Below, piece by piece: positions 1 through 63,987 of a DNA stretch of 64,000 bases. The translations under genes and the position numbers were made by a program. The notes beneath the pieces are model-generated. The model was not told the origin of the DNA, did not search any database, and worked only from the letters and a program-made list of their open reading frames with translations. Within the stretch, counting starts at the first letter, position 1, and the number at the start of each line of letters is the position of its first letter. Origin of the DNA: Candidatus Dojkabacteria bacterium (GTDB lineage Bacteria > Patescibacteriota > Dojkabacteria > SC72); NCBI GenBank assembly GCA_041678505.1, contig JBAYOB010000001.1, positions 1,667 to 65,666 on the forward strand, in the 5' to 3' direction.

Positions 1-1112
1 ATAAAGAGCAAGTCCAAGAATATGAGGACTTTCAAATAAGTATAAATAATTCATCTTACGATAAGCCTAAGGATGCTAAGGGCGGAAGCAACGAAGAATA
101 CTATGAAACTCCTCAAGAACTTGGACAGTATTTTATAAAAGAAGGACTTAATACTGTTGTTATGTCTCATATGCATAAATGTCCTCCCAAAACAGACCCC
201 AATAGTGTTCACCTATACAAACTCTGTCTAAAAGAATTAAATATTTGTGAAAAAGGAAAATGGCGTAAAGATCCTACAGGAACACATAAATACGGAACCT
301 TAAAAAATCCAATAGTAGTTGAAACAGTGGATAAGGATGGGCTAGGAGAGGTTATACACTTAATCTTAAATGGAAATAATCTTACACAGTGTGTAGGAGA
401 TTCTGCAGGTGATGGTGGAGTTAACTGTTACAGTATTGAAGGAAACAACATCGCTATTACTCTAAATTCAGAAGAACAGAATATTATTTCAGGAGAGTAT
501 AGATTAGATGTAAAATGGGAAGATGGAGAAGGAATTGGTGGGAGTAATTGTGAATTAAGTAGTGAATTTAACATTTCAGAAGAACCTCTTCCTTCGGATT
601 GCGGAACTAATACAGGTTTAGTATTTGAAGCTACAGAAACAGATTGGCCTGAGGGAGGTACTTTCTGTTCTGTAGGAGATCCTAATCCTGTAAACCCCAT
701 ATTTCCAGCTTTAGGTATGACGACAGAGTGGGAGTGTGAAGGTACTTCTGGAAGTGTAGGCTGTTCTGCTTCTAGATTAAAACCAGTATCACCACCTCCT
801 GTAGTAGTAGAAGATCCAGAACCACCACCTCCATCTCCTGTAGTAGTGGAGGAACCAACAGAGACACCTCAAGCTCCTGTTGTAGCTCAAAGAACCCCTG
901 AGACAGGTATACTTGATGATATAGGGAGACCCGTATTAATGGGAAGTTCACTACTAGTCTTAGGAGTAACTTGGTCATGGATAGGTAGAGGTATGCTTAC
1001 TTCCATTACTTTCTTAGATAGGTTGTACAAAAAGACAGTAATAGGTGTTAAGGATGTTAAAGGAGATAATAGGAAAAAGAAATTTGAAAAGAGGGTAGGA
1101 AAAAGAATATAG
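1..1112 (+). CDS. Secreted/cell-surface protein, 5'-partial (the reading frame is open from the window start). It has a Pro-rich linker (PPPVVVEDPEPPPPSPVVVEEPTETPQAP) and a C-terminal sortase-like sorting signal: TPETG, then a hydrophobic segment, then a basic tail.
   Basis: The frame containing the 162..1112 ORF has no stop back to nt 3. The C-terminus reads '...QRTPETGILDDIGRPVLMGSSLLVLGVTWSWIGRG...KKKFEKRVGKRI'. This gives an LPXTG-like motif, a TM helix and a positively charged tail. Confidence 0.55.
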   Translation, partial: KEQVQEYEDFQISINNSSYDKPKDAKGGSNEEYYETPQELGQYFIKEGLNTVVMSHMHKCPPKTDPNSVHLYKLCLKELNICEKGKWRKDPTGTHKYGTLKNPIVVETVDKDGLGEVIHLILNGNNLTQCVGDSAGDGGVNCYSIEGNNIAITLNSEEQNIISGEYRLDVKWEDGEGIGGSNCELSSEFNISEEPLPSDCGTNTGLVFEATETDWPEGGTFCSVGDPNPVNPIFPALGMTTEWECEGTSGSVGCSASRLKPVSPPPVVVEDPEPPPPSPVVVEEPTETPQAPVVAQRTPETGILDDIGRPVLMGSSLLVLGVTWSWIGRGMLTSITFLDRLYKKTVIGVKDVKGDNRKKKFEKRVGKRI

Positions 1113-46521: not shown

Positions 46522-48975
46522 TTGCTTAAAAACTTTCTTTCTATTAGAATTCTTACTATGATAATGATAATTGCTGTCCTAATACTGTTGATTCTTTCCC
46601 TTCTTTTTATCGTTTTAATACTTATAATTAGTGGTAAAAAAAAGAGTGATGAAGAGTATTACGAAGAGGTGCGAAACCCTTTCATTATGCAGATTTTAGT
46701 CCCCAGAGAGAATGAAAAAGCATCTTTAGCTGCAGAGCAGATGTTTGCATCCATACATGGAATTCTAGAAGATTATCAAAAGTGCCCAGATGTAGTAAGT
46801 TTTGAGATAGCATCTTCAGAAGAGCATGGTATAAAATTCTATGTTGTAGCATCAGAGCATCTTTCTAGGTTCATTGAAGGACAAATATATGCTCAGTATC
46901 CTAATGCGGATATAAAGTATGTTAATGACTATACCAAAAGAGAGAATGAAGAGAATGTTTTTGTTACGACAGGAGAAATAGAGATGGAGAAAGACTACAT
47001 TTTCCCAATCAAGACTTTTATGAGTTTTGAGGTGGATCCATTAGCGGCGATAACAGGAGCTCTTTCAGAGTTAAATAGAGGTGAGGAGGCTTGGCTTCAA
47101 ATAATTGTAAGGCCAGTATCAAACTATTGGCAAGAGAAAGCTAAGAAATATATTACAGCAATAGAGGAAGGAAAGAACCCTTATGCGAATACCTTCTGGG
47201 ATTTTGTTTCTTCTCTTTTTAAGGGAATAGGTAGTGCTTTAGCAGAAAGCCCTACAAGTAAAGTACAGAAGGAAATAGTGAAACTTTCTCCAGGACAGGA
47301 GGAAGAATTAAAAGAGATAGAAAAGAAGATGCTTAAGGTTGGTTTTGAGTTTAGAATTAGAGTGGTAACAAAGGCGGATACTCAATTAAGGTCAGAGCAA
47401 ATATTAAGAGATATGGTGGCTAGTTTCAAACAGTTTACAACAGCCCATCTAAATAATTTTGTACATATAGTGCCAGAGAAATCAGGTAAGGAGATATATG
47501 AAGATTATCTTAAAAGACATATTTCTCAGGAGGAGTTTGATATATTAAATATTGAAGAGTTAGCCTCTCTATACCACTTACCCAACATTTCAGTTGAAAC
47601 CCCTAATATTGCATGGAGTAGGGCAAAGAAGTTAGAACCTCCTATGAATTTACCCAAGAGTACTGAAGATGAGGTTACAGTATTTGGAGAAACGGATTAT
47701 CGTGATATTAAAGTAGAATTTGGTTTGAAAAAGAAGGATAGACAAAGACATTTCTATCTTCTTGGTAAAACGGGAACAGGAAAATCTACGCTATTTAAAA
47801 ATATGTTCATATCGGATGTTTTAGCTGGAGAAGGAGCCTGTTTTGTAGATCCTCACGGTGATACGGTTGAGGAGCTACTAGACTACATTCCTCCTAACAG
47901 GATTGATGATGTAGTATATTTCAATCCTACTGATGTAGAAAACCCAGTAGGATTCAATCTCTTAGAACTTAAGGATAAGTCTCAAAGAGATCTGATAGCA
48001 GATGGAGTGGTGGAGGTGTTTAAGAAACAGTTTGGAGACTCTTGGGGGCCTAGGCTGCAATATATCCTCACAAATACTGTTTCTACTGCACTAGAAGCAC
48101 AAGGGACGACTCTCTTAGCTATCATTAGGTTATTAACAGATAGTAATTACAGGAAGTTCATATTAAAACAGGTCGATGATCCAATCCTATACAAATTTTG
48201 GACAGAAGAATATGCTCAAATGGCACAGAATAGCCGTTTAATAACAGAAGCTATTTCTCCTATCCAAAATAAGGTGGGAAGATTCATATCCTCTGCTGTT
48301 ATTCGAAACATTATTGGTCAGATTAAATCAACGGTGAATTTAAGAGAAATAATGGATAACCAGAAAATACTACTTGTCAATTTAGCACAAGGTAAGTTAG
48401 GAGAAGAGACAGCTTCACTACTTGGGGGTATGGTAATAACTAGGTTACAGGCAACTGCTATGGAGAGAGTTGATATCGCAATGGATGACAGAAAAGATTT
48501 TTTCCTGTATGTAGATGAGTTTCAGAATTTTGCTACAGAATCTTTTGCTAAAATTCTTTCAGAAGCTAGAAAGTACAAACTAGATTTAACTATGACCAAC
48601 CAATATATTGATCAGATACCACTACCTGTTAGGCAATCCATATTTGGTAATGTAGGAACAATTGGCTCTTTTGTAGTAAGTCCTGCAGATGCTGCCATAT
48701 TAGAAAAAGAGTTTGCTCCGATGGTATCTGCTGATGATTTAGTTTCATTAGATGCTTGGGCAATGTATGTTAAATTGTGTATAGATGGGATGACATCTGT
48801 TCCTTTTAGTGCCAAATCACTACCGATTAGATATCATAAGTTTGCATTAAAAGATGATGTTGTTAGTAGGTCTAGAGAGAAATATGGAACAGAAAGAGAG
48901 GTAATTGAAGGGAAAATTAAGAAATGGAGCAATCAAAAATACAGTGATAAGGGGAATAGGTCTATAGAGAAGTAA
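46522..48975 (+). CDS. Membrane-anchored TraG/TraD/VirD4-family (type IV coupling protein-like) P-loop ATPase
   Basis: It has an N-terminal TM helix, the Walker A 'LLGKTGTGKSTL', the TraG/VirD4-type motif 'FVDPHGD' and a Walker B-like 'LYVDEFQNF'. Confidence 0.55.
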   Translation: MLKNFLSIRILTMIMIIAVLILLILSLLFIVLILIISGKKKSDEEYYEEVRNPFIMQILVPRENEKASLAAEQMFASIHGILEDYQKCPDVVSFEIASSEEHGIKFYVVASEHLSRFIEGQIYAQYPNADIKYVNDYTKRENEENVFVTTGEIEMEKDYIFPIKTFMSFEVDPLAAITGALSELNRGEEAWLQIIVRPVSNYWQEKAKKYITAIEEGKNPYANTFWDFVSSLFKGIGSALAESPTSKVQKEIVKLSPGQEEELKEIEKKMLKVGFEFRIRVVTKADTQLRSEQILRDMVASFKQFTTAHLNNFVHIVPEKSGKEIYEDYLKRHISQEEFDILNIEELASLYHLPNISVETPNIAWSRAKKLEPPMNLPKSTEDEVTVFGETDYRDIKVEFGLKKKDRQRHFYLLGKTGTGKSTLFKNMFISDVLAGEGACFVDPHGDTVEELLDYIPPNRIDDVVYFNPTDVENPVGFNLLELKDKSQRDLIADGVVEVFKKQFGDSWGPRLQYILTNTVSTALEAQGTTLLAIIRLLTDSNYRKFILKQVDDPILYKFWTEEYAQMAQNSRLITEAISPIQNKVGRFISSAVIRNIIGQIKSTVNLREIMDNQKILLVNLAQGKLGEETASLLGGMVITRLQATAMERVDIAMDDRKDFFLYVDEFQNFATESFAKILSEARKYKLDLTMTNQYIDQIPLPVRQSIFGNVGTIGSFVVSPADAAILEKEFAPMVSADDLVSLDAWAMYVKLCIDGMTSVPFSAKSLPIRYHKFALKDDVVSRSREKYGTEREVIEGKIKKWSNQKYSDKGNRSIEK

Positions 48976-51612: not shown

Positions 51613-52637
51613 TAAAGTCTACGGTAGATAAGAAAAAAACAGAGAAGAAAAAAGGAAAAGTTGTAGATTCTACATCTACAATTCCAGAATTAGAACAAAA
51701 AATTAGACCAAGTAAGTTAGATGAAATAATAGGGAGGAAAACAGAGAAAGAAACACTAGAAATGATGATAAATTCAGCTCAGAAAAGAAATGAGGTGATA
51801 GATCATATACTTTTCTATGGTCCTCCTGGTTTAGGGAAAACTACTTTTGCTATTGCAATAGCAAATGAAATAGGGGCATCTATTAAGATAACATCAGGAC
51901 CAGCAGTGGAGCGACAGGGAGATTTAGCTGCAATAGTAACGGGGTTAAAAGCTAATGATGTTCTTTTTATAGATGAAATACATAGATTGTCTAAGGTGGT
52001 GGAGGAGGTTCTTTATCCTGTTATGGAAGATAGGGTTTTAGACATTATAATGGGGAAAGGTCCTTCTGCTAAGACAATACGGTTGACACTAGAACCGTTT
52101 ACTTTGATAGGGGCTACAACTCAAATTGGGAAAATTAGTTCTCCTATGCGAGATAGATTCGGTTTAATACAGCGACTAGATTTCTTTTCCCAATCAGATT
52201 TAGTTTCTATTCTTGAGCGTGCTAGTAAATTGTGGGATATTAAGGCGGAAAAGGATGCTTTGAAGATGTTAGCTAATTGTTCTAGAGGAACGGCTAGGGT
52301 AGGGCTTAGATTGTTAAGAAGGACAAGGGATTATGCAGATAAAAAGAAATCAAGCACCATTACAGAAGAGATAGTAATTAAAACGATGCAACTTTTAGGA
52401 GTAGATCTTCAAGGTCTGGAGGAGATAGATAGAACAATACTTAGGACTATGTTAAATAATTTTGCAGGAGGACCTATCGGTCTTTCTACTTTAGCAGCAT
52501 CTATCTCTGAGGATGAAGTTACTTTAGCTGATGTACATGAACCCTATCTCATGAAGTGTGGCTACATTAAAAGAACATCTAGGGGTAGAGTATTAACAAC
52601 GAAAGGTCTAAAATATATAGAATCTGTAGATGGATAA
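51609..52637 (+). CDS. ruvB: Holliday junction ATP-dependent helicase RuvB
   Basis: It has the AAA+ Walker A 'LFYGPPGLGKTTFA' and a Walker B 'VLFIDEIHRL'. It overlaps ruvA by 4 bp. Confidence 0.9.
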   Translation: MIKSTVDKKKTEKKKGKVVDSTSTIPELEQKIRPSKLDEIIGRKTEKETLEMMINSAQKRNEVIDHILFYGPPGLGKTTFAIAIANEIGASIKITSGPAVERQGDLAAIVTGLKANDVLFIDEIHRLSKVVEEVLYPVMEDRVLDIIMGKGPSAKTIRLTLEPFTLIGATTQIGKISSPMRDRFGLIQRLDFFSQSDLVSILERASKLWDIKAEKDALKMLANCSRGTARVGLRLLRRTRDYADKKKSSTITEEIVIKTMQLLGVDLQGLEEIDRTILRTMLNNFAGGPIGLSTLAASISEDEVTLADVHEPYLMKCGYIKRTSRGRVLTTKGLKYIESVDG

Positions 52638-53451
52638 AATTGGTAGGAATATAGATGAGGAAAAGAGAGGTAAACTTCTAGTTCTTGCAGCTTTTATCTC
52701 TATTGCTATCTTTGTCACTAAGATTACTCAAGCACAGGCTCAGATTGTAGTATGGAGAGTGTATCTTAATGCAGCAATATATTTCTTAATTGCATTCGTT
52801 GGATTAATTTGGGCATTTGGATTTCAGATTAAGAAAAAGTCTATACTATTTATTCTTCTTCCCTCCTTTTATGTCTTTTCTCAAGCTCTGTTTATAGAGT
52901 TTTTCTTTTTCCAGAAGTTTAGTCGTATTTATGAAGCCATTATACTTCTTCTGTTAATATTTTTGGCCTTTTTAGGTAACTATGTTTCATTCTTAATGGC
53001 CAATGTTTTAAATGTAGATCTGTTTAAAAAAATACCTCTTGCACAGGTAGGTAGAACCTCTTCCTATCTGGTTTCTCTTCTAATGATGTATTTTTTTACT
53101 TTTAGTTTCCTAGTTAGTGGCTTCCCGCTGTATATTTTACTTCCTCTTCTGTTACTATCATATATTTTTGTTGTTTCTGTTCATTACTCTAATATTGGCC
53201 TAGAGGGTAGGGAGCTTTTAAGAAAAAGTATATTAACAATATTAATATCATTTACTCTTTTTCTAGGGATATTCCTAACAGGAGATGCTCATGAAGTTGT
53301 TGCTGCTATACCTGTTCTTGGTTATTTCTTTACAGTAGGGGTAGTTAGTAGAGAGAGAGTTGTTCACAGTAAAGCTAAAGGGATCTATTTGTATGCAATC
53401 ATTTTAGTAATAATGTTCCTTTTTGCAGTATTTTTAAATATTCGCAATTAG
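52630..53451 (+). CDS. Polytopic membrane protein, hypothetical
   Basis: It has about 7 hydrophobic helices and overlaps the ruvB stop. Confidence 0.4.
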   Translation: MDKIGRNIDEEKRGKLLVLAAFISIAIFVTKITQAQAQIVVWRVYLNAAIYFLIAFVGLIWAFGFQIKKKSILFILLPSFYVFSQALFIEFFFFQKFSRIYEAIILLLLIFLAFLGNYVSFLMANVLNVDLFKKIPLAQVGRTSSYLVSLLMMYFFTFSFLVSGFPLYILLPLLLLSYIFVVSVHYSNIGLEGRELLRKSILTILISFTLFLGIFLTGDAHEVVAAIPVLGYFFTVGVVSRERVVHSKAKGIYLYAIILVIMFLFAVFLNIRN

Positions 53452-53920
53452 AGAAATATGTGTGTTGTTTCATGAGAGTAGGGGGAGGGCACCTTGGAGC
53501 CCATAGTATCCGATGGCCTGTAGTAATCGGTGTGGATAAGGTTCTGCTAAATAAATCTTAGATGAAAATAAAAGAGACAGTATAGTAGAAGTATATCTTT
53601 TTAACGAATTTATATTCTTCTTGTATTTAATCATTTTAAATAATGGGGTTACTTCTTCTCCCCTTTACGATAATATGTTACAATACCAAATATGGCAATC
53701 GAGTATAATCATCCTTATATGCGGTGATGTACTCTGGGGCTTTGGAGGAGACTCTCTAAGATCTAATTTAAGATATTTAAATTAAATGAGATATATGATC
53801 AACCACACTTACCACAATTCAATCCTGTATTACTCTCTCTCATTCATATGTTCCTCATCAGCTTTTCAAAAAATAGTCCCCTACTCTGGTTGTTTAAATT
53901 TTAATTTGATATAAAGAGAT

Positions 53921-55285
53921 ATGGACAATTTCCCTAAATTAGAAGATCAAGATGACTTCTTACTCTACCTTCAGAATAATAATTACAGCATACAGAGCAT
54001 TCATAACTATGCACGTGATCTTTGTATATTTGCTACCTTTCTGTATTTCAGGAATGTAAAGTTTAAGAATATTACTAAGAGAGATATAAGTACGTTTAAA
54101 GGATACTTAGTTGCAGGAGAACATTTAAAAGATTTGGATAGATTTAGAGGTCAATACAGAAGAAAGATTGATACAGCAAGGGTTCAGAAGGACGAAGCTC
54201 TCAGAGGCGATCTAAGGCATGTTGAAATTCAAAGTGATACAGTTACACCTTTTGAAGAGGATGAAAAGTCGGTGAAACATGAGGAGAAGTTTGAAAGCAA
54301 ATTTTTGACTGATGTTTACAGTAAGGTCTATGGAAGTCTTGGGAAATTTTCTAAACCGTTGAATAGTTCAGCTAGGAAAAATAATGGATTGGATCCAAGG
54401 AGTATAAATAGGATGTTATCTGCTTTGAGATCTTTTTTAAGATTCAGAATATCTTGGGATTTGGATGTTCCAATTCCTCCAGATGCAATTGATATGATGA
54501 AAGCAGAAAAAAGGACAAAGAAGGTTGCTGATTTAGAAGAGCTTGTTAAATTAATTGAATCACCAATGCTTTTTGAGAGAGATGAAAGGGTGGCTTTAAG
54601 AAATAGGTGTATGCTAGAGATGTTAATTTCAACAGGTATGAGGATATCAGAGTTGATCTCTTTGGATTTGGAACAGATTAATGAAGATGGTAAATTATAT
54701 ATTATTGGTAAAGGTAAGAAAGAAAGATCTGTGTTTTTAACATCAAGGAGTTTGGATTGGTTAAATAAATATTTAGTGGTTAGGTTAAAATATGCATTTT
54801 TGGATAGGAGTAAAGATGAACAACCAGTAGAAATGAATGGGATTTTTGATGAAAATTATAGTGAAAAAGACCGTGAAACATCTGAGGTTTCTAACTTAAA
54901 TTTAGAAATTTTTGATAAAGGGAATAGGAAATATATAGGGCTGGTTGAAAAGTATAGGAAAAGTGGTCTGTTAAGTAAGTTTGATTCCCCTGCCCTATTT
55001 ATTCCTTTCTCAGGTGTTAGAGCTAAAAAACCTAATTCAAGATTATCTACAAACTATTTACAAGAAAGAATTGCTGTGTATAGAAGGAAGTTAGGTATAC
55101 AGATACCTACCTCTGCTCATAGCTTAAGGCATGGTTTTGCTACCTACTTGGCAGAACAAGGAGCTAGTCCAGTGGCGCTACAACTGTTGTTAGGTCATGA
55201 GAGTTTAAATACTACTACAAGGTATGTCCATGCAAGTGAGAAATTTGCAGAGGAAACTGTTAGAAAGAATCATCCATTGAAATAA
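53921..55285 (+). CDS. Tyrosine-type site-specific recombinase/integrase (XerC/D-like catalytic domain; 454 aa with insertions)
   Basis: Three catalytic motifs are present: box I 'LRNRCMLEMLISTGMRISEL', box II 'SAHSLRHGFAT' and the Tyr motif 'LLGHESLNTTTRYVH'. Confidence 0.8.
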   Translation: MDNFPKLEDQDDFLLYLQNNNYSIQSIHNYARDLCIFATFLYFRNVKFKNITKRDISTFKGYLVAGEHLKDLDRFRGQYRRKIDTARVQKDEALRGDLRHVEIQSDTVTPFEEDEKSVKHEEKFESKFLTDVYSKVYGSLGKFSKPLNSSARKNNGLDPRSINRMLSALRSFLRFRISWDLDVPIPPDAIDMMKAEKRTKKVADLEELVKLIESPMLFERDERVALRNRCMLEMLISTGMRISELISLDLEQINEDGKLYIIGKGKKERSVFLTSRSLDWLNKYLVVRLKYAFLDRSKDEQPVEMNGIFDENYSEKDRETSEVSNLNLEIFDKGNRKYIGLVEKYRKSGLLSKFDSPALFIPFSGVRAKKPNSRLSTNYLQERIAVYRRKLGIQIPTSAHSLRHGFATYLAEQGASPVALQLLLGHESLNTTTRYVHASEKFAEETVRKNHPLK

Positions 55286-55302: not shown

Positions 55303-58300
55303 CTAATTTGCATCATTAATGATAGAGTAGAATGCATGTAGAATGTATGTTAGTTTTTCTCCCTCTTCATGTTGTTCTGTGGTACTAGTAGTATTTAAGT
55401 CCGGATGAGCTCTTTTTAGTATATTGATATATACCTTACGCCAATCTTTAAACTGTGATCTCTGTTTTCTAATTAAAAAGATTTTTTCCGCTTCAGTAAG
55501 AGATGAAGGGCCATTATCTAGTAGTTTTGCAAGAATCTGTATGGGCAAATTCCTTACTGTTTCAAGAAAATTATATGACTGCTGTTCAATAGGGTCTGAA
55601 GAGTCTTTATTAAATCCCCAAAATGGGTCATATTTCTGTTCTGGTTGTTCATGTTCAGACTGTTCAGAGGATGCCGAGTCTCCATCTGTAAAGTTTCCTT
55701 TATATCTGAGATATTCCTGTATTATTGGAATTTTACTAATATAGTTTTCGTACATGTCTACATAAAGCCCGTTCCTTAGTCCAGGATTTCCATATCCTTC
55801 TGCTTGTGATTCGTATTCGAATGCTGGAGTTATTAAATCTCCTCCTTTAATCCAATTTCTATGCAGTCCAGTAGAAGTAATATTTCCTTCTTCATGAATT
55901 CCTCCTATCCAAACTCTACCTTTTGTATCCTTGTAGAGCGTGTATCTTAAAGAATTATCGTTAGAGGGATAGACTTCAACTGTAACTTCACCACCATAAA
56001 AAAGGCTCCTTTGACTCCATGTGTCAATGAGATTGGAATAGTTAGGAGACTCTTCTTCGGTAAGTACTAATTCTTCTGGAGGTACTTTTTCATTTGAGCC
56101 TGTTGTATAAGGGAAGTTCTTGAGTTCTCTAGGGTTTTCGTTTATCTCTTGATAATAAGAGTACTTCTCAGATTCCGTGTTATTTACCTGATTGTATTTT
56201 GTTCCTAGTCTTGCAGTACCGGCAAAAACGAATTCAGCATCATCTATTGCTAGAATAGAATTTTCATCCTTTGTTATCTCTGATAAGGCTTTACTTATTG
56301 GAATTGGAAGCCCAAGGCTTTCTTCACTCCATCCCTTACCATACCATCCAATAGAACTGTTATCATTTGGGTCAAGACTGTAGTAAGGCAATAGTCTCCA
56401 TGTGGCAGAAGAGTTGCTAAGATAATAAGATCTTGCATAAACCTTATCTTCCTGTTCTACATATGCTACAACAGCCAAGCGGTTACCCATAATTCTGTAT
56501 GCTGATGAGGATAACCATATTACAGAGTTTTCCATGTTTATTCTGTATTTTGGTGATAAACCTTTCTCTCTTAATATCTCTGCAGTTAAGGTTTTTCCCT
56601 GATATAGATCACCTTCTATTATTACTTTGTCTAATATTCTCTCTGCGTCATCACTTTCCAATGTATGGATACCATAAGCTATTTCACCTTGTGTAAAAGG
56701 AGAATCCTCCAAAACTTGTTCTGGAGTGCTACTTTGATACGATTGCTCAGAAGATGTAATTTCTTCATCAAGAGGTATATTTCCTACAAAAGAACCCGCC
56801 TCTTCTTCTTTTATACGTAGAATTCTTTGAGCTAACACTCTACTAGTTATTATTTCTCTTTCCTCTATAGGTTTCATTGTGCCCCACTCTACCCAAGTAC
56901 TGTTTTCCTTAATACCAGATTGTACTTTTTGGAATCCACCATTATTGCCATGAGGGAAAAGGTTTATTCTTCTTCTACCTCTTTGTCCGTCGGCAGAAGA
57001 GATATTATCTAGTACATTTGTAAGTACTTCTATTTTAGTGTCATTTTCTTGAGAAAGAAGTGTATCAACTAGGTCCTCTATCTCAATTGGTTGGCTATCC
57101 ATAAACCATCCTAAATTAGTAAGTGTAAAAGAGTGATTACCCATTATAAATATCTGTCCGTTAGGCATAAATTTATAGTTCTTATCTGTATAATCTTTTC
57201 CAAAAACCTGTGTAATAAGTATTTCTCTAGTGTATTCTTCAAGTAGAGGGTCTACAGGCTCAGGTTTGGGGATTTCAACATTTAATTCAGGTATAGATAA
57301 AATAGTTTCTCTAATAATTCTTCCTTCTTTAGCTGGGAAAAGAGATGCTATAGCTAAAGATGAAGTAATACCTAATGTGTTTAGTGTAAGATTGGGAGTA
57401 GTATCCACCAATGTTGTTAGGTCTATAGAATCTACAGTGGCTTCAAAATTAAAATTAATTCCAGGGGAACTTTGGGTTATCGTTTGTCCAGGGGATGAAG
57501 CAGGGAAATTAACAGGTAGCCCATTGTTAAGTTGTTGTAACCATCTCATTACTGTGGGAGAATTTGTTATTTCAAATTGTTCAGCAGGTTGTACAGGATT
57601 GTTTAGTCCAAATTCAGTTCTAATATTTGCATCATTAATATTATGCCCCCCTCCATCTCTATACAAAAAATTTTGTAACTCATGTTTTTCTCCCTGCATG
57701 TTAGGGTTGTACTCTTTTGCTACGGTGAGGATCTTATCGAGCAAGGATGGCACAGAATCTCCTGTCTCTACCTTAATAATGGAAGAGCTTGGTGTCCCTT
57801 CTGTGACAGAAATAGATTCAGATCCAGGGATACTAGATAGTTGTGCAAGGTTAATATTGTGTGCAGTACCGTTAATCTGAACAACAGTATCTCCGTTAGC
57901 TTGTATGTTTGAGATAGACATAGATGCTGTGGAACCATCACTCATTGATGCTTTCAATGCACCGGTCAATTGTGATTGATTCATAATGGAAAGGTTCCCA
58001 CTACTGTCGGAGTGAATTATTCCTACTACTTCTCCCTGTTGTCCTACTATTGTTCCCATTATTCCTGTATTTGAACCTGTAAACTCAGAAACAGATACTT
58101 TCCCAAAGCCAGGGTTTTGAATTTCAAAAAGTTTTTCAGCCCCAACAGTGTTCTTAGCATAGAATTCATTAGTATTAGGGACATGTACTAAATCAGCAGC
58201 CCCATCTCCATCTAGATCGATTAGATTTACATCTCTCCCTGTGTGGTCTTTGTATTGGGACACATTTGCATTTTGATTATTTAATGCATTTCTATACTGA

Positions 58301-59943
58301 TCTCGTACTAAGTTTTGATTCTTTTGAATTTCTATTTGCCCTACTCCCGAATGGATTAATTTCCCAGCAGCAATAGATGTAAATGTTAAGTTTGCAAGAG
58401 TATTTCCTGTTTTGATCCCTAATGTCTTGTTGACTAAATCAAAGTAGGTGCTTCTTTCATTAGAAAGTAGGTTCTCTACATCAGTTGCTTCCAAACTTAC
58501 AAATTTGGTTATTATCTCTACTGCAAGTTTTTTCCTGTCATCTTCAGCACTGTTGTTCCATGCCTCAGATGTTAAATTGATAAGCTCTTCATTATCAAGG
58601 GTATCTATAAAGCTTTCGATATTAATACCTATAATTTCCTCCATAGGGTATTCCTGAGTACTTGTTGGTAAATCACGAAAACCTATATTAGTTATATCTA
58701 CTTCCTTTCTGATGTCGTTTCCTTGATTATCTTTTTCTGTATAATGTACATATTTATATTTAGGATCACCTGTTTGTTTATATAGATAGTTAAGTGCGGC
58801 TATAGCTGTTTTCTGAGCTGTTTTTACTTCATCTGGAGATAAATTGGGATCTTGTATGTCGCTAATAACTTTACTGATATCTATACCCTCTCTCTTAACA
58901 TACCCTAAATTTTTAAGTTTGTTATATCTTCTCTGTTCAAAGGAATTCAAATACGAATCTAATAGTTCTTGTTGCTTTTTATTTAAATCACTTTCTAGTT
59001 TTGCTTGCATCCCAATTTCTATTGCAGTAGAACCTACTACCATAGCGATAGGTAATGCTGGTCCTACACCGGGTATTAAAGCAGGAAGTAACATTCCAGC
59101 ACCTCCCTTCATAAGACCTGATACCGCAAGACCTGTAGCTACTCCTTTTAAAAACCCCTTATCTTTTATCAATTCAGAAACAGTTTTCCCTTGTTCTTTA
59201 GCTGATATTTTCATTCCTTCATAGACTTTATATGCAGTGTAACCACCAAGCCCTAACATTATGGCTCCAGCTCCTATGGCCCCTGCAGGTCCTAGGGTTG
59301 CTATGGCTAAGCCTGTTCCTTTTGCTACTGCAAGAGAACCAGCTACAGATATTCCTATTTGGGATACTAAACCCTTCCATCTCTGTCCTGAAAACATTCT
59401 CTTAATAGTTGCAAAATATCCATTATTTGTTTTACCAGCCTCTTCGATTTCTTTCTTTTCTTCTTGCGAAAGAGGAACTAGAGCATTTGCTCTTTCTACG
59501 ATGACCGTATTTATTTGTTCTGTTTGATTGGATATATCTTGTTCAGGAGTGTCTTGTTGCTCCTCCATAGGTCTAGGATCTCCGGTCAAAGCAATATCTA
59601 CAGCACTTCTTATTAAATTAGAGTCAGAACTTTCCTCTGGTATAGCTGTGTTTGTTTCATCAGGAGTATCTTGTTGCCCCTCCATGGGTCTAGGACCTCC
59701 GGCCATAGCAATATCTATAGCACTTCTTATTAAATTAGGGTCAGAACTTTCCTCTGGTATAGCTGTGTTTGTTTCATCAGGAGTATCTTGTTGCTCCTCC
59801 ATAGGTCTAGGACCTCCGGCCATAGCAATATCTACAGCACTTCTTATCAAATTAGAATCAGAGCTTTCCTCTGGTATAGGTGTAGAGATATTTCCTTCAG
59901 AAGGAGTCTCGTCTTCTCTACTGTTTCCTATTTCTGGGTCCAT
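55303..59943 (-). CDS. Giant (1546 aa) repeat-containing membrane-associated protein, hypothetical. It has N-terminal tandem 39-aa repeats, Gly/Ala-rich hydrophobic helices and a C-terminal J-domain-like segment.
   Basis: It is an uninterrupted ORF. The N-terminus carries three copies of the 'NTAIPEESSD.NLIRSA.DIAMAGGPRPME.QQDTPDET' repeat. Hydrophobic stretches include 'GISVAGSLAVAKGTGLAIATLGPAGAIGAGAIMLGLGG'. The C-terminus reads 'YINILKRAHPDLN...EKLTYILHAFYSI', which contains an HPD motif. Confidence 0.55.
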   Translation of the reverse strand: MDPEIGNSREDETPSEGNISTPIPEESSDSNLIRSAVDIAMAGGPRPMEEQQDTPDETNTAIPEESSDPNLIRSAIDIAMAGGPRPMEGQQDTPDETNTAIPEESSDSNLIRSAVDIALTGDPRPMEEQQDTPEQDISNQTEQINTVIVERANALVPLSQEEKKEIEEAGKTNNGYFATIKRMFSGQRWKGLVSQIGISVAGSLAVAKGTGLAIATLGPAGAIGAGAIMLGLGGYTAYKVYEGMKISAKEQGKTVSELIKDKGFLKGVATGLAVSGLMKGGAGMLLPALIPGVGPALPIAMVVGSTAIEIGMQAKLESDLNKKQQELLDSYLNSFEQRRYNKLKNLGYVKREGIDISKVISDIQDPNLSPDEVKTAQKTAIAALNYLYKQTGDPKYKYVHYTEKDNQGNDIRKEVDITNIGFRDLPTSTQEYPMEEIIGINIESFIDTLDNEELINLTSEAWNNSAEDDRKKLAVEIITKFVSLEATDVENLLSNERSTYFDLVNKTLGIKTGNTLANLTFTSIAAGKLIHSGVGQIEIQKNQNLVRDQYRNALNNQNANVSQYKDHTGRDVNLIDLDGDGAADLVHVPNTNEFYAKNTVGAEKLFEIQNPGFGKVSVSEFTGSNTGIMGTIVGQQGEVVGIIHSDSSGNLSIMNQSQLTGALKASMSDGSTASMSISNIQANGDTVVQINGTAHNINLAQLSSIPGSESISVTEGTPSSSIIKVETGDSVPSLLDKILTVAKEYNPNMQGEKHELQNFLYRDGGGHNINDANIRTEFGLNNPVQPAEQFEITNSPTVMRWLQQLNNGLPVNFPASSPGQTITQSSPGINFNFEATVDSIDLTTLVDTTPNLTLNTLGITSSLAIASLFPAKEGRIIRETILSIPELNVEIPKPEPVDPLLEEYTREILITQVFGKDYTDKNYKFMPNGQIFIMGNHSFTLTNLGWFMDSQPIEIEDLVDTLLSQENDTKIEVLTNVLDNISSADGQRGRRRINLFPHGNNGGFQKVQSGIKENSTWVEWGTMKPIEEREIITSRVLAQRILRIKEEEAGSFVGNIPLDEEITSSEQSYQSSTPEQVLEDSPFTQGEIAYGIHTLESDDAERILDKVIIEGDLYQGKTLTAEILREKGLSPKYRINMENSVIWLSSSAYRIMGNRLAVVAYVEQEDKVYARSYYLSNSSATWRLLPYYSLDPNDNSSIGWYGKGWSEESLGLPIPISKALSEITKDENSILAIDDAEFVFAGTARLGTKYNQVNNTESEKYSYYQEINENPRELKNFPYTTGSNEKVPPEELVLTEEESPNYSNLIDTWSQRSLFYGGEVTVEVYPSNDNSLRYTLYKDTKGRVWIGGIHEEGNITSTGLHRNWIKGGDLITPAFEYESQAEGYGNPGLRNGLYVDMYENYISKIPIIQEYLRYKGNFTDGDSASSEQSEHEQPEQKYDPFWGFNKDSSDPIEQQSYNFLETVRNLPIQILAKLLDNGPSSLTEAEKIFLIRKQRSQFKDWRKVYINILKRAHPDLNTTSTTEQHEEGEKLTYILHAFYSIINDAN
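59543..59893. repeat. Three tandem, near-identical 117-bp direct repeats encoding the N-terminal 39-aa repeats of the giant protein
   Basis: Copies start at 59543, 59660 and 59777 ('tcaggagt.tcttgttgc.cctccat.ggtctagga.ctccgg...'). Only a few substitutions separate the copies. Confidence 0.8.
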
Positions 59944-59965
59944 TACTTAAAAATCATAAATTATA

Positions 59966-60442
59966 TTATTCCCCATTAATAATTCTATCTACCCCTTCAT
60001 AATCTCCAGCTTCAAGTAACTCTTTTGCCTTATCAATCTCTTGTTCAGATAATTGCGATATTTTAATATGTAAGTCTTTTGTATTTACTATCTCTTCTAG
60101 TGTGTCTTTTATCAACGAATCCATTATTTCAGAGTTTATAGTTTCCAAATCTTTATTTGTCTTATTTAATAGAAATTTATTCAATACAAGCAGTTGTTGC
60201 GCACTATTTGCTCCAGAATCAACAAAATCTTTCCATTTGCTAAATTCTTCATCATTCATTAAGGCACTTATTTTTGCTAATGTTTGCTTAATACTTGTAG
60301 TAGACAAGCTAAAAACGAGAGTTTCTATCTGTTCATCATTGAAACCTAGATTTTGAAGATTGCTGGTGAAAGTCTTTAACTTTTCCTCTAGAAGGTCACT
60401 ATCTTGTACGAGAGAAGATAGACTTTGTTGGGCAGAATCCAT
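59966..60442 (-). CDS. Small acidic, predicted all-helical protein (158 aa), hypothetical. It lies 22 bp upstream of the giant ORF and is co-directional with it.
   Basis: It is an ORF with coding-like composition and is rich in D/E/L/K with no TM segment. Confidence 0.45.
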   Translation of the reverse strand: MDSAQQSLSSLVQDSDLLEEKLKTFTSNLQNLGFNDEQIETLVFSLSTTSIKQTLAKISALMNDEEFSKWKDFVDSGANSAQQLLVLNKFLLNKTNKDLETINSEIMDSLIKDTLEEIVNTKDLHIKISQLSEQEIDKAKELLEAGDYEGVDRIINGE

Positions 60443-60546
60443 ACATTACTTTTACCAAATTATACGTAAACATATAGTAGTAATTAAAAAGGGAAAAGTC
60501 AATAAAAACATATTAAAATGATGACTAACATACTCTTAAAAACACA

Positions 60547-62559
60547 CTACTGTTTTCCAATAGCTTTGAAAGAGGTGTTCAACACATTTTCTTTCTTAAC
60601 GACATTAAATCTTACTATTTCTTGAATAGCTTCAAAACCATGTTTAAACCATCTCATCTTTTTACCCTCTTGCTCTGTTCTTGGATTATAGTAAATATCT
60701 AGTTCTTTAACATTAAGTTTCTTTTTATTTACTTTTCTGTAACTTGCAAATTTAGCGGTAGATTCAGGTTCTAAACCAAAGTTTGTAGTAGATACTAAAG
60801 AAGAGAAAACATCTCTTACAATATCCCCTCTACCCATCTTGTAACAGGTCTCCATATCTTTTACTCTAAAACCTTTTGAGAAAGTAAATAGATTAGAAAC
60901 AGTAGTAACAAACTTGTTTCCTAAAAGATGAGTTTTGTTTATAAAGGTATTACCTTTGTTAAATCTGTTACCGTATATTAAATCGGTGTATGGTTGAGTG
61001 ATAAAGATATCTACAAATCTTGCCAAGTCATTAGGTTTGTATTCTAAGTCAGCATCCTGTACTACTACGAGGTCTCCCGTACTATGTAATACTCCATGTT
61101 TAACTGTCTGAGATTTTCCTAAGTTCTCATGGTTATGTAAAAGTTTATATTCAGAATCATTACTATTTGCTCTCTTTACAAAAGATTTTACTAATTCAGC
61201 TGTACTATCAGTAGATTTATCATTAACTATTATTATCTCTTTTGTAATACCGTTGGATAGTTCAATGTCATTAACCTTTTTAAGAAGTTTAAGTATAGTG
61301 TTCTCCTCATTGTAAACAGGTATGACGATTGAAAGTTTACTTATATTCTCAGCGTAAAGATGATCATAGAAGATGTTTTCATAATATTTATTAACCATAG
61401 CTTTGTTAGAGAAATTCTCTTTTGTTAATATTGCAATACTATTATGCATATCTTTCTTTTTACTATCCTCTATTGCCATAGCTAATCTCCTAGACATATC
61501 GGCAGCATTTCCTCTAACAAAGATATATTTTTCTGTTCCTGTCGTTCTTGCTATTTCTCTGTTACTTGGTGCATTAGAAAGAACAGGAATATTACCAAAA
61601 GCACAAGCTTCTAAAATACCTAAAGCTAATCCTTCGCTTAGAGAGCTGTTAACATAGATTTTAGATTTTCTCAGAAGTCTAAAAAGATCCTCCTGCTTTA
61701 TAAATTTGGGGATAATCTCAATATTCTTAGGAAGATTTTTGTATTTCTTTAATGATTTACCCTCACCAATTAATACAAATTTCCAATCTGGATATCTTTT
61801 GGCAATCTTTCTGTATCCTCTTAAAGCAGTACTAGGATCCTTTACCTCTATCCATTTAGCTGCCCACACAACGATATTTTCTTTCTTTCCTGAATCATTC
61901 CTTATCTCTTTAGAATCATGCCCGTTGTATATCACATCTATAGCATCTCTCTCAATATTAAATGTTTTTGATGCCCATTTTCTTCCTGTTTCTGATACAG
62001 TTATTACATTTTCTGCAAATTTAGGAACAAACTTAAATATATTCCCATCTGCCCATTTTGCTAATTCTGTTGTAAATTTAGTACTAAAGAATGCATTTCC
62101 TGCATTATGCTCAATAACGGTATATTTATGACCTAGTACTATACAAAGTAATGCAGCAATAATGCTACTTGTTACATGTCTACTATGGATAATTACCTTT
62201 GCGTTGGTGTTCTTTCTTAAAAGATTGAAAAGATGTATTGTAAATCCAATGCCAAATATAGGGTATGTGCCATTAAAGATGTTTTTAACTTTAAAACTAT
62301 TTAATTCGAAACCATCTATAGTTGTTCTATATTTCTTGTCAGAACCGAATACTGATATACAACTAAGGCCTTTTTTCTGTAATCCTGATACAAGATTGTA
62401 AGCCATGTTCTCCAATCCCCCTACCCTAGGATAGAAGAAATGAGAGATTGATATCAAATCATATTTATTTTTCTGTTTTTTATCAAAAATCTTCATAGAA
62501 ATGGTGTCTTTAAAGTATTTTATATAATCTAACAGTACTACATTATACCACAAAAACAC
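60547..62559 (-). CDS. Bifunctional glycosyltransferase: an N-terminal GT4 (GT-B) domain fused to a C-terminal GT2 (DPM1-like, GT-A) domain
   Basis: The GT4 motifs are 'ISHFFYPRVGGLENMAYNL' and 'SLSEGLALGILEACAFGNIPV'. The GT2 motifs are 'LSIVIPVYNEEN', 'IIIVNDKSTDST' and 'VVVQDADLEY'. The likely true start is ATG 62496 (MKIFDKK). Confidence 0.7.
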   Translation of the reverse strand: MFLWYNVVLLDYIKYFKDTISMKIFDKKQKNKYDLISISHFFYPRVGGLENMAYNLVSGLQKKGLSCISVFGSDKKYRTTIDGFELNSFKVKNIFNGTYPIFGIGFTIHLFNLLRKNTNAKVIIHSRHVTSSIIAALLCIVLGHKYTVIEHNAGNAFFSTKFTTELAKWADGNIFKFVPKFAENVITVSETGRKWASKTFNIERDAIDVIYNGHDSKEIRNDSGKKENIVVWAAKWIEVKDPSTALRGYRKIAKRYPDWKFVLIGEGKSLKKYKNLPKNIEIIPKFIKQEDLFRLLRKSKIYVNSSLSEGLALGILEACAFGNIPVLSNAPSNREIARTTGTEKYIFVRGNAADMSRRLAMAIEDSKKKDMHNSIAILTKENFSNKAMVNKYYENIFYDHLYAENISKLSIVIPVYNEENTILKLLKKVNDIELSNGITKEIIIVNDKSTDSTAELVKSFVKRANSNDSEYKLLHNHENLGKSQTVKHGVLHSTGDLVVVQDADLEYKPNDLARFVDIFITQPYTDLIYGNRFNKGNTFINKTHLLGNKFVTTVSNLFTFSKGFRVKDMETCYKMGRGDIVRDVFSSLVSTTNFGLEPESTAKFASYRKVNKKKLNVKELDIYYNPRTEQEGKKMRWFKHGFEAIQEIVRFNVVKKENVLNTSFKAIGKQ

Positions 62560-62583: not shown

Positions 62584-63987
62584 CTAGTTAGGTACGACTA
62601 AAAGTCTGAAATTGCTGTCTAAATACACAATTTCATACCCTTTTGAAAGGAGAAATAAACCTAATTCCTCAATATCAGGTATTCCATAATTATTATTTAT
62701 CTCATACTCATACATAGAGTTTAGCCAAGGAATATTATCTTGGTTCACATATCTCTTTTTTGAGTAGATTCTGCTAGAAAGAAGGATACACAGGTTGTTC
62801 CTTTTAATATCTCCTGCGATTAAGAGTTCTTCATATGTTCTTTCTTTTGGTGAATTTACAAACTCTACAAGTGCTTCTCTTGTTTTTAGCTCCTGATAAT
62901 GTCCTCCAGCAGTTTGATAATCTGTATAGCTTGCTACTATTAATTGGGTATATGGATCAGAAACTATTTGACAATCATATTTGTTGTTTTTTAAATGCAT
63001 AACTATCCCATTATCATCATTTGAAATAGCAGATATTTTACCCGTATTTTGAGTATAGAAAAGGTTGTATTTTTGTGAGTTTAGGAGATAGAAAGGGAGA
63101 GAAGAGGTAAAGAGAATAGAAAGGATAGTTATAGCAAGTATTTTGTTTGTTCTTAAGTCTAAGAGAAGTAAACATATGAGTAATATCATAAAGACAGTAC
63201 TTCCAAGTAAAAACTTGTTTGCATATGTAGGGCCTAAAAAGAAAAGAGATAGAGATACTGATATGTAAAAAATTGCGAATAAAGAGATGTTTCCTTTGTC
63301 CTTTTTCTTAAAGATAAAATATACAGCTGCAATAATTAGTGGTATTAAAAGAGGACCGTACTGTGTGGCTAGGAACTTTAAGTTATCAGGGAAATAATAG
63401 TTACTTAGATACCCTATCTGCTCTATATCTTGAATTTGTAGTAACTTTTCAATACTAAATCCTCTTAAGTTGGCAAAAAAAGTAATAATTACACTTAAAA
63501 AGGATAGTAGTGTAAATGTTTTAGCTAATCCGAAGTTTTTAGGTTTGCTGTGTGGATTGAATACAGTAATAGAAATTATTGAAAGTGCAGTGAAGAGAGG
63601 ACCGAATATGAAGTGTGTAGATATTAATATTGGTGTAACTAGGAGGACCTTTTTCCAGTTTAAGTTTTTTTCTAAAAGAATATTTAAGAAAAGGAAAAAT
63701 GTAAGTGTTTGAGGAAGAATGAAGTTAAAAGAGTGTGCGCCTATTTCAAATACAAAAATAGCTGATAATGATGCTAAAAAGGAGATTGTTTTGTCTTTAA
63801 TATGTCTGTTTAAGAAGAGAGAGATAAGTAATGAGGAAACAGCAATAAAGGCAATGTTTAAGGATACTTCTGCTATTCCAATATTTAGGTTTGATCCTAC
63901 TGTATGTACTGTTTGGATGGTGTGGTAATATGTCGTATATCCAAGTTTTTTAAACAAAGAGGAACATTGGTTTGGTGTTATACACAA
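62584..63987 (-). CDS. Polytopic membrane protein (~9 TM) with a C-terminal soluble domain. It may be a GT-C-type glycosyltransferase or polymerase/ligase-like. Its 5' end may extend beyond the window.
   Basis: It has many hydrophobic helices. The frame is still open at the window edge and the apparent start codon is TTG. Confidence 0.35.
   Translation of the reverse strand: MCITPNQCSSLFKKLGYTTYYHTIQTVHTVGSNLNIGIAEVSLNIAFIAVSSLLISLFLNRHIKDKTISFLASLSAIFVFEIGAHSFNFILPQTLTFFLFLNILLEKNLNWKKVLLVTPILISTHFIFGPLFTALSIISITVFNPHSKPKNFGLAKTFTLLSFLSVIITFFANLRGFSIEKLLQIQDIEQIGYLSNYYFPDNLKFLATQYGPLLIPLIIAAVYFIFKKKDKGNISLFAIFYISVSLSLFFLGPTYANKFLLGSTVFMILLICLLLLDLRTNKILAITILSILFTSSLPFYLLNSQKYNLFYTQNTGKISAISNDDNGIVMHLKNNKYDCQIVSDPYTQLIVASYTDYQTAGGHYQELKTREALVEFVNSPKERTYEELLIAGDIKRNNLCILLSSRIYSKKRYVNQDNIPWLNSMYEYEINNNYGIPDIEELGLFLLSKGYEIVYLDSNFRLLVVPN

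Follow-up and report, generated by a model that had tools for sequence, protein, structure and literature searches.

Membrane-anchored J-proteins such as E. coli DjlA combine hydrophobic N-proximal segments with a C-terminal helical hairpin that contains an HPD tripeptide. Exported giant proteins are represented by the RTX adhesins, which are acidic, free of cysteine, and bind calcium. Phage tape-measure proteins are very long, carry Gly-rich and weakly hydrophobic segments, and have a gene for a small acidic assembly chaperone upstream. [quoted passage not shown]

The locus compared here with these systems belongs to a Candidatus Dojkabacteria (CPR) chromosome and is carried on a 697-kb contig; "the window" denotes the whole stretch of 64,000 nucleotides that was analyzed. 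It encodes a giant protein, identical (100%) to the NCBI MAG protein WCY00_00285 of Candidatus Dojkabacteria, and a small acidic partner. Dojkabacteria genomes are well under 1 Mb in size, and the maintenance of a 4-6 kb gene together with its small partner at the same position in every locus examined argues for an important lineage-specific role. The initial annotation regarded the giant protein as membrane-embedded and potentially able to recruit Hsp70 through a J-like C-terminal domain.

Organization and conservation of the cassette

Both genes lie on the minus strand, as initially described: the giant protein is encoded by a single uninterrupted ORF of 1546 codons (pI 4.6, no cysteine), and the 158-aa partner (pI 4.4; 30 Asp and Glu versus 15 Lys and Arg) by an ORF located 22 bp upstream (Table 1). 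The window and all seven further Dojkabacteria loci that were examined share the same order, with the partner gene immediately upstream of the giant gene at a distance of 13-24 bp; this adjacency is kept even where the identity of the giant core falls to 31-39%; the partner identity remains 45-77%. Moreover, no terminator-like site was found between the two genes, and a promoter-like site precedes the partner gene, although the latter is weak evidence, as the number of such sites across the region is not above shuffle expectation. These observations support the earlier proposal of a two-gene operon, and the two genes are probably co-transcribed.

Table 1. Positions of the cassette features and flanking genes in the window
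Feature	Position	Strand	Remarks
Tyrosine recombinase gene	53921..55285		Pfam Phage_integrase, E=1e-31
Giant modular protein gene	55303..59943	minus	Single uninterrupted ATG-started ORF, 1546 aa
Acidic linker and unique helical tail	55306..55692	minus	
J-like helix-HPD-helix	55306..55503	minus	Residues ~1481-1546
HPD tripeptide	55399..55407	minus	Residues 1513-1515
Tail module A	55693..56682	minus	Residues ~1088-1417
Conserved family core	56734..59541	minus	Residues 135-1070
DxDxDG-type motif	58177..58221	minus	IDLDGDGAADLVHVP; residues 575-589; FG-GAP-like, single copy
Hairpin 2	59008..59157	minus	Residues 263-312; Gly/Pro-rich hydrophobic; invariant LPALxPGVGPxLP
Hairpin 1	59230..59373	minus	Residues 191-238; Gly/Ala-rich hydrophobic; invariant Lys208 and Gly-Pro turn
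Three tandem 39-aa repeats (variable N-terminal head)	59533..59883	minus	Residues 21-137; Tandem Repeats Finder and translation
Partner gene	59966..60442	minus	158-aa acidic protein; ORF 22 bp upstream of the giant gene
Promoter-like site	60474..60502	minus	TTGACT-17-TACTAT, upstream of the partner gene; consensus scan only
Glycosyltransferase gene	60547..62559		GT4+GT2 fusion

The flanks also proved to be as annotated, with a tyrosine recombinase gene on one side and a gene for a GT4+GT2 fusion glycosyltransferase on the other. The best models for the recombinase are XerD (166 bits) and XerC (162 bits), both under their equivalog cutoffs, and its gene is syntenic with ruvB/ruvA in those relatives whose contigs reach that far. 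Since the recombinase is Xer-like and syntenic with ruvAB, its presence is no evidence of mobility; the core genes mfd, dnaX, cysS, and dnaB also lie in the window, and a reading of the locus as a prophage or integrative element is ruled out by synteny and gene content. Glycosyltransferase genes neighbor the cassette in all loci, and in L001 and L012 sortase and VanY genes also lie within a few genes of it. Wherever the contig is readable, the cassette occupies a fixed chromosomal position. The scanned GTDB representative genomes contain no relative of the giant core or of the partner, and a metagenome scan with the partner yielded one further locus (L011), whose contig stops within the giant gene. 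Judged from these sequence comparisons, the cassette is Dojkabacteria-specific and chromosomally fixed.

The partner family comprises 51 clusters, nearly all of 158-162 aa, and all its named members are from Dojkabacteria. The partner has no TM-like segment, and neither it nor the giant protein has a signal peptide. Both families avoid cysteine: there is none in 8081 residues of the partner family and 10 in ~17,400 residues of the giant family, compared with 0.69% in the other ORFs of the window, which amounts to an about 12-fold depletion. In some Gram-positive bacteria, exported proteins are known to exclude cysteine (PMC2823432). However, the signal-peptide proteins of the window are only mildly depleted of cysteine; therefore, the avoidance of cysteine cannot serve here as a calibrated marker of export.

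Modular architecture of the giant protein

The giant protein consists of a variable, repeat-bearing head, a conserved core of ~935 aa, and swappable tails; head and tail modules are exchanged among relatives, while the core is constant. Only 18 representatives of the core are present among 1.84 billion proteins. The three near-identical N-terminal repeats that had been reported (residues 21-59, 60-98, and 99-137) were recovered both by translation and by Tandem Repeats Finder (59543..59883; period 117, 2.9 copies, 92% matches, no indels, score 598). The giant and partner genes are nucleotide-identical in L014 (an ENA megahit contig) and L015 (a JGI contig); thus, the three-copy repeat is not the quirk of one assembly. 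This head repeat occurs in no homolog, and other family members have different head repeats. The core body (~750 aa) is multi-domain; in the predicted structure, it consists of a number of globular, beta-rich domains and not of a single long helix.

The two Gly/Ala-rich hydrophobic stretches that had been taken for membrane helices are indeed present and form two hairpins. Nevertheless, the description of the protein as membrane-embedded is uncertain because the hydrophobicity of these segments is marginal: on a crude Hessa scale, they sum to +2.8 to +6.3 kcal/mol, compared with -4 to +2 kcal/mol for the helices of neighboring membrane proteins. The segments also carry invariant Lys and Pro residues. 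In this, they are unlike Sec-type anchors and resemble hairpins that are chaperoned prior to insertion, such as the transmembrane domains of T6SS prePAAR effectors with their Eag chaperones. In the sequences, Lys/Arg-rich flanks are found on both sides of each hairpin and also before the hairpin of tail module C (see below), which, according to the positive-inside rule, fits a cytoplasmic placement of all soluble parts.

The calcium-binding-like motif noted earlier is located in the core, and four homologs retain D576, D578, D580, G581, D584, and L585 without change. All Pfam matches of this region are sub-threshold (TcdB_toxin_midN, 16.2 bits, cutoff 24.8; FG-GAP_3, 14 bits, cutoff 26.9), and the match to FG-GAP amounts to 9.5 bits. 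A search for an FG-GAP or integrin-type beta-propeller revealed this single motif and no significant blade matches.

Family members differ in which of the tail modules A, B, and C they carry on the one shared core. Module A (~330 aa), which is also found in 44 separate, smaller Patescibacteria protein clusters and in many unrelated architectures, is modeled with a pLDDT above 90 and has no PDB neighbor. Neither a signal peptide nor a TM segment is present in the separate module A proteins, and no conserved neighbor genes were found for them. The near-invariant residues of the module are SNS, K, C/D, and E; in the window protein, the near-invariant cysteine is replaced by Tyr. Module C contains a hairpin, and most relatives possess this extra C-terminal hairpin. 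Five loci (L001, L008, L009, L012, and L013) have a third small acidic gene (140-149 aa) after the giant gene; tails were compared for three of the five, and in all three the tail proved to be module C. In the window and in L002, where the tail is module A, this gene is missing. The third-gene product looks soluble and lacks an export signal. As hhalign probabilities were 0.4% and 0.1%, respectively, the third gene was rejected as a paralog of the partner, and so was a relationship between the unique tail of the window protein and the C-terminal extension of the separate module A proteins.

The earlier statement that no known family can be assigned has been upheld. Scans of the whole giant protein, five core and three C-terminal pieces, 11 relatives, and six module A proteins against Pfam, NCBIfam, PHROGs, and PADLOC gave nothing above threshold, and neither sequence nor profile searches of the PDB, run with the giant protein, tail, partner, module A, and core, yielded anything significant. 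In particular, no PADLOC anti-phage model matched the giant protein, the partner, the third gene, or module A below E=0.02; there was no PHROG match at E<=0.1, and the neighbors are xer, ruvAB, and glycosyltransferase genes; no Pfam match linked the partner or the giant protein to Eag or prePAAR proteins; and no Pfam or NCBIfam domain for polymorphic-toxin trafficking (LXG, PAAR, RHS, CdiA, and similar) or for a toxin was detected in 15 family members and six module A proteins. A LysM-like reading of residues ~720-810, made by eye, was dropped for lack of Pfam support. A search of the literature on giant proteins of Dojkabacteria and Patescibacteria found nothing on this family.

The J-like C-terminal end

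The J-domain proposed in the initial annotation stands in one respect, as the HPD tripeptide lies between predicted helices. AlphaFold2 places it in the loop between helices 1484-1512 and 1524-1545 (pLDDT 41-57), but the tail model is of low confidence (pLDDT 41-70) and merges helices I and II into a single one. DnaJ (PF00226) is the sole Pfam match of the 82-aa tail; however, its score of 13.7 bits (E=0.069) is half the gathering score of 27.8 bits taken as the criterion for a J-domain. DnaJ is not listed for the full giant protein at E<=1, and an NCBIfam search with the tail gave no match. J-domains are on top in a PDB phmmer search with the tail and account for four of the eight best matches, but only at E~0.8-1; one of the alignments covers helix II, HPD, and helix III. 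A Foldseek search with the low-confidence model retrieved the J-domain of DNAJB6b in eighth place (E=1.5, probability 0.08), and the spacing between a helix-I-like IFLI motif and HPD is one that we take to match that of E. coli DnaJ. On the other hand, hhalign of the tail with a hand-entered J-domain alignment gave a probability of 12.5%, 63 of 3000 shuffles with HPD fixed (2%) scored as well as the real tail, and when all six frames of the window were scanned with a home-made J profile, the giant ORF came second without significance (E=2.8).

Moreover, the helix-HPD-helix tail is absent from all homologs (P0002, P0003, P0004, and P0049-P0054), which have other C-terminal modules; HPD and its flanking helices, on whose conservation the proposal was to be judged, are not conserved in them. 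As the tail is confined to this genome, Hsp70 recruitment cannot be the function of the family. The end of the giant protein bears only a weak, genome-specific resemblance to J-domains, below threshold in every test, which does not establish one; it may be a degenerate J-domain that lies outside the conserved function of the family. The J-domain annotation is attractive but weak and should not be propagated.

Possible functions of the cassette

The best, though tentative, explanation at present (a probability of about 35%) is that the giant protein belongs to the envelope or the host interface and is escorted by a chaperone before it inserts into a membrane. The partner, which we infer to be its dedicated escort or chaperone, would maintain the giant protein in a soluble or export-competent state; the hairpins would insert post-translationally into a membrane, either that of the own envelope or that of the host; and the giant protein would act outside the cytoplasm, at the envelope or host-contact interface, with its variable ends giving lineage-specific interactions. 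This explanation is consistent with the adjacency of the two genes in the window and seven other loci with no terminator between them, the swapping of heads and tails on a constant core, the third gene found together with module C in the loci compared, the weak hydrophobicity of hairpins with invariant Lys and Pro, the cysteine depletion, the invariant DxDxDG, and the envelope genes nearby. It is at odds, however, with the absence of signal peptides and of any detected secretion-system domain or known chaperone family, with hairpin flanks that fit cytoplasmic soluble parts, and with separate module A proteins devoid of signal peptides and TM segments. Cysteine avoidance is uncalibrated as an export marker here, and the fixed chromosomal position is unlike that of typical polymorphic effector loci. 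Several of these points suit the main rival, a cytoplasm-facing scaffold, in which the hairpins, together with the C-terminal hairpin of relatives, anchor the giant protein on the inner face of its own membrane, and the cytoplasmic head, body, and tail organize with the partner envelope glycosylation, division, or another lineage-specific process; in this genome, the J-like tail could by analogy draw DnaK to the membrane in the manner of DjlA. Signal peptides are absent, the hydrophobic segments are even in number and positively flanked, the partner, third-gene product, and separate module A proteins look soluble and lack export signals, and the position is fixed by glycosyltransferase genes (all loci) and by ruvAB/xer (where contigs reach); the weak J-domain resemblance fits as well. 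Against such a scaffold, which is only slightly less probable than the best explanation, stand the extreme cysteine avoidance of giant protein and partner, the invariant calcium-type loop, the fast swapping of modules and the tandem repeats at both ends, hydrophobic segments too weak for standard TM anchors, and J-domain evidence that is sub-threshold and limited to one genome.

A further reading, about as probable as the scaffold when the evidence of the preceding section is taken together, regards the last ~65 residues as a genuine J-domain and the recruitment of Hsp70, either the cell's own or that of a host, as a key activity of this particular protein. Polymorphic toxins typically combine a conserved N-terminal region with C-terminal modules that vary, as is the case here, and the head, hairpins, and core might be a delivery region for interchangeable toxins, with the upstream acidic protein as secretion chaperone or adaptor and the downstream acidic gene encoding the cognate immunity protein. 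That gene occurs with module C but not with module A tails, module A occurs in many unrelated architectures, and Gly-rich hairpins with a small upstream protein recall Eag-chaperoned prePAAR effectors (PMC7773334). Yet no LXG, PAAR, RHS, WXG, known toxin, or immunity domain was found, divergent relatives keep the same chromosomal position, the window and L002 lack a downstream gene able to confer immunity, module C is a membrane hairpin rather than enzyme-like, and the near-invariant cysteine of module A is lost in the window protein, which makes this reading quite improbable. More speculative still, and very improbable, is a Dojkabacteria host-contact device, in which the cysteine-free giant protein, escorted by its chaperone, would be exported by a non-Sec route and place its glycine-rich hairpins in the host membrane, building or anchoring a conduit that functions like a tape-measure protein or translocon. 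Within the host, its interchangeable ends would be active; in this genome, these would comprise a mimic of a J-domain, able to hijack the Hsp70 of the host, and an enzyme-like domain of orphan fold common to Patescibacteria.

No part of the cassette matches a described family or solved fold, the confidently modeled ~330-aa Patescibacteria-wide domain included. Little has been described of the ways in which CPR bacteria attach to hosts, feed from them, or organize their envelopes against them. A cysteine-free giant protein that is conserved and diversifies fast, together with partners resembling chaperones, offers a concrete candidate for such a role.

Comparison with described systems

Like DjlA, the giant protein has N-proximal hydrophobic segments and an HPD-containing helical hairpin at its extreme C-terminus; however, it is about six times larger, its J profile match is far below threshold, and the tail occurs in no relative. 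It shares with tape-measure proteins its great length, Gly-rich weakly hydrophobic segments, and a preceding gene for a small acidic protein, but differs in its conserved synteny, its predicted beta-rich body, and the absence of PHROG matches and nearby phage genes. RTX adhesins resemble it in size, pI (~4.6), near-absence of cysteine, an Asp-rich calcium-type loop, tandem repeats, and the lack of an N-terminal signal peptide; in contrast to them, it contains internal hydrophobic hairpins, has a single DxDxDG instead of an array of RTX nonapeptides, and is not accompanied by an adjacent ABC exporter.

We know of no T6SS in Patescibacteria. The Dojkabacteria cassette differs from the Eag/prePAAR system in lacking prePAAR, PAAR, Rhs, DUF1795, a T6SS, and a recognized toxin domain, as well as in its fixed chromosomal locus. 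Nevertheless, the two are alike in that a small protein gene lies directly upstream of a gene for a large modular protein (PMC7773334), in that the large protein has one or two N-proximal Gly-rich hydrophobic hairpins and variable C-terminal modules, and in that a small downstream gene goes with some tail types.

A conserved two-gene cassette

The giant gene and the gene of its acidic partner (pI 4.4) were both found as the initial annotation had read them, and they belong to a cassette that recurs in other Dojkabacteria. In all seven loci compared (L001, L002, L003, L008, L009, L012, and L013), a partner gene encoding 158-160 aa lies 13-24 bp upstream of a giant homolog of 1691-2028 aa. Partner identity is 45-77%, including at loci whose giant cores share only 31-39%. 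As the 22-bp gap contains no terminator-like site and the partner gene is preceded by a promoter-like one, the pair is probably, as suggested earlier, a two-gene operon. The partner family comprises 51 clusters by profile search, nearly all of 158-162 aa, and every named cluster is from Dojkabacteria. The giant family is narrow; a core profile retrieved only 18 hits, nearly all large, from 1.84 billion representative proteins, and neither core nor partner was found among GTDB species representatives.

In five loci, a third gene encoding a small acidic protein (140-149 aa; three sequences aligned as A6) follows the giant gene; neither the window nor L002 has it. Tails were compared for three of these five loci (L001, L008, and L009), and in each the giant tail is module C. 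By hhalign, the third gene and the partner are unrelated.

Coordinates of the cassette, its parts, and its neighbors (window positions unless residues or another locus are named)
Feature	Position	Strand	Description
Giant ORF	55303..59943	minus	1546 aa, ATG start, uninterrupted
Partner ORF	59966..60442	minus	158 aa, 22 bp upstream of giant ORF
Gly/Ala-rich hydrophobic stretches	giant residues 191-238 and 263-312		
IDLDGDGAADLVHVP motif	giant residues 575-589		
Module A	55693..56682	minus	giant residues ~1088-1417
HPD tripeptide	giant residues 1513-1515		
Third gene	L001 15305-15727; L008 8911-9360; L009 13105-13545; L012 14730-15176; L013 14630-15070		downstream of giant gene
TrwB_AAD_bind protein	46522..48975	plus	817 aa, N-terminal TM segment, E=1.9e-7
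Membrane protein	52630..53451	plus	273 aa, ~9 TM, cysteine-free, no Pfam/NCBIfam match
Xer-like recombinase	53921..55285	plus	454 aa; XerC/XerD models match in three separate stretches
GT4+GT2 fusion glycosyltransferase	60547..62559	minus	other flank of cassette
~8-TM protein	62584..63987	minus	467 aa, adjoins glycosyltransferase, no Pfam match

Modular architecture of the giant protein

Alignment of four homologs and all-against-all BLAST of protein ends divide the giant protein into a variable head, a conserved core (residues 135-1070), and exchangeable tails. The three 39-aa head repeats noted previously occupy residues 21-137; Tandem Repeats Finder detects the 117-bp unit at 59543..59883 (2.9 copies, 92% matches, no indels). 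Because both genes are identical at the nucleotide level in an ENA megahit contig and a JGI contig, the three-copy repeat is reproducible across assemblies, which speaks against an artefact of one assembly. These repeats are limited to the window genome; other heads are different and longer, and at least those of the homologs P0002 and P0003 appear to hold an internal duplication of ~100 aa.

Tail module A is shared by the window protein and P0002, module B by P0002 and P0003, and module C, with a further hydrophobic hairpin, by P0004 and P0050-P0054. Homologs of module A also form 44 clusters of smaller proteins (309-773 aa), which differ in their extra regions and lie in scattered genomic contexts; where a cluster is named, as few are, the label is Patescibacteria or simply 'bacterium'. 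A near-invariant Cys of this family ('FMFCKD..GRVWIGG', P0005-P0048), retained in P0002, is replaced by Tyr in the window protein ('YTLYKD'), a copy that may lack activity if this Cys is catalytic. In many of the separate module A proteins (P0005-P0041), the C-terminus is a conserved extension of ~65 aa ('SFAELYQAIEQ.GGLQG...ITRTGGLR.RV'; e.g., P0006 residues ~660-734) that has no Pfam match. Kinship of this extension with the window tail was rejected (hhalign probability 0.1%).

The two Gly/Ala-rich hydrophobic stretches were located as described, and their region retains many small residues, Lys208, Lys266, Lys279, and a Pro-rich 'LPALxPGVGPxLP' segment as invariant in the homolog alignment. 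The score of the best 19-residue windows, by a crude Hessa scale that ignores position, is +2.8 to +6.3 kcal/mol, compared with -4 to +2 kcal/mol for helices of two neighboring multi-pass proteins. The segments look like marginal hairpins rather than standard anchors and, given these scores and an AF2 pLDDT of 22-51 over the region, that the giant protein is membrane-embedded is something we can only infer.

Scans of Pfam, NCBIfam, PHROG, and PADLOC with the giant protein, pieces of it, and eleven relatives returned no match at threshold; the same holds for the partner, the module A proteins, and the third gene, and PDB sequence and profile searches were empty. No part of the cassette fits a known family or fold, in agreement with the initial annotation. 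The DLDGDG motif is present in a single copy, and FG-GAP and TcdB_midN matches are only sub-threshold, which does not favor a beta-propeller. The Dojkabacteria and Patescibacteria literature, as searched, contains no description of the cassette; the families and the cassette are previously undescribed.

The HPD-containing tail

The HPD tripeptide is present at the C-terminus, and the J-domain formerly read around it is doubtful. In its favor, AF2 places HPD between two helices, four of the top eight PDB phmmer matches are J-domains (E 0.8-1.3), one of these alignments spans helix II, HPD, and helix III, and Foldseek ranks the DNAJB6b J-domain eighth (E=1.5). DnaJ is the only Pfam match of the isolated 82-aa tail, but at 13.7 bits (E=0.069) it falls below the cutoff of 27.8. 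An NCBIfam scan for a J-domain found nothing, hhalign against a J-domain alignment gave a probability of 12.5%, and a home-made J profile scored the tail at 8.4 bits, a score reached by 63 of 3000 HPD-fixed shuffles. When all six frames of the window were scanned, the giant ORF came second with an insignificant score. The AF2 model of the tail has a pLDDT of 41-70, which also counts against a J-domain. Because the HPD tail occurs in no other family member, there is no way to demonstrate that it is conserved, and it cannot be the family's defining feature. The evidence against a J-domain is stronger than the evidence for it, all of which is weak; a working J-domain is unlikely, and the idea of Hsp70 recruitment is weak.

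Chromosomal setting

The window is ordinary chromosome, containing mfd, dnaX, cysS, dnaB, two tRNAs, and ruvA/ruvB, the latter identified by synteny conserved with relatives. The cassette is indeed flanked by a tyrosine recombinase and a glycosyltransferase. The recombinase was dismissed as a sign of a mobile element: XerD and XerC are its best-matching models, and in relatives it keeps its position beside the conserved 273-aa membrane protein and ruvB/ruvA. Its three separate model matches imply that an insertion of ~100 aa separates the N-terminal SAM-like part from the catalytic domain. It is preceded by a 470-bp stretch (53452..53920) without any ORF of at least 60 aa. The gene of the 273-aa protein has an 8-bp overlap with the ruvB stop. 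Relatives in which this region was read keep the protein between ruvB and the locus end that carries the giant gene, among them L009 and L013, where xer is absent.

From its listed GTG start, the glycosyltransferase has 670 aa versus 647-649 aa in relatives; its true start is therefore probably an internal ATG ('MKIFDKK'). In L013, a glycosyltransferase cluster upstream of the cassette includes a 962-aa protein with a weak GT-C_AftD match. The 817-aa window protein resembles a type IV secretion coupling protein, and its counterpart is found at the equivalent syntenic position in both L001 and L009, there with DUF8128 too. This coupling-protein-like candidate might have a part in any export of the giant protein.

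Possible roles of the cassette

Two lines of evidence point in opposite directions, one to an exported and the other to a cytoplasm-facing protein. The giant protein has no Cys in 1546 residues, eleven members of its family 10 in ~17,400, and the 51 partner clusters none in 8081 (counted in P0002-P0004, P0049-P0056, and P0063-P0113). At the 0.69% Cys of other window ORFs, ~10.6 would be expected in the giant protein (Poisson P of zero ~2e-5). In some Gram-positive bacteria, exported proteins have been documented to exclude cysteine (PMC2823432). The avoidance is striking, yet it is no calibrated export marker in this window because signal-peptide proteins here are only mildly depleted (about 0.47%).

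We rank first, at a probability of about 0.35, a chaperone-escorted, membrane-inserting envelope or host-interface protein. The giant protein would be exported, face the envelope or host, and insert into the membrane after translation. This reading is consistent with the near-total Cys avoidance, the invariant Ca-type loop, the diversification and tandem repeats of the ends, the envelope genes nearby, and the pairing of hairpins of weak hydrophobicity with a small acidic protein that is encoded upstream and tightly conserved. Its Cys avoidance, loop, and diversifying ends tell against a cytoplasm-facing scaffold held by the hairpins, which we place second and consider rather unlikely. Such a scaffold would account for the absence of signal peptides, the fixed chromosomal position, the soluble appearance of the partners and separate module A proteins, and the positively charged hairpin flanks: as read by eye, these are Lys/Arg-rich on both sides, so that under the positive-inside rule all soluble parts would be cytoplasmic. 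A true polymorphic toxin locus, third, is quite improbable, and the rest of the probability goes to no named reading. The J-domain question is separate from all three readings.

The cassette is a well-conserved, sizeable investment within a reduced genome and holds an orphan fold, module A, found across Patescibacteria. The exported, chaperone-escorted protein that we favor would resemble, in its logic, Eag-chaperoned prePAAR effectors (PMC7773334) and tape-measure proteins with their chaperones, although the cassette has none of the defining features of either system.
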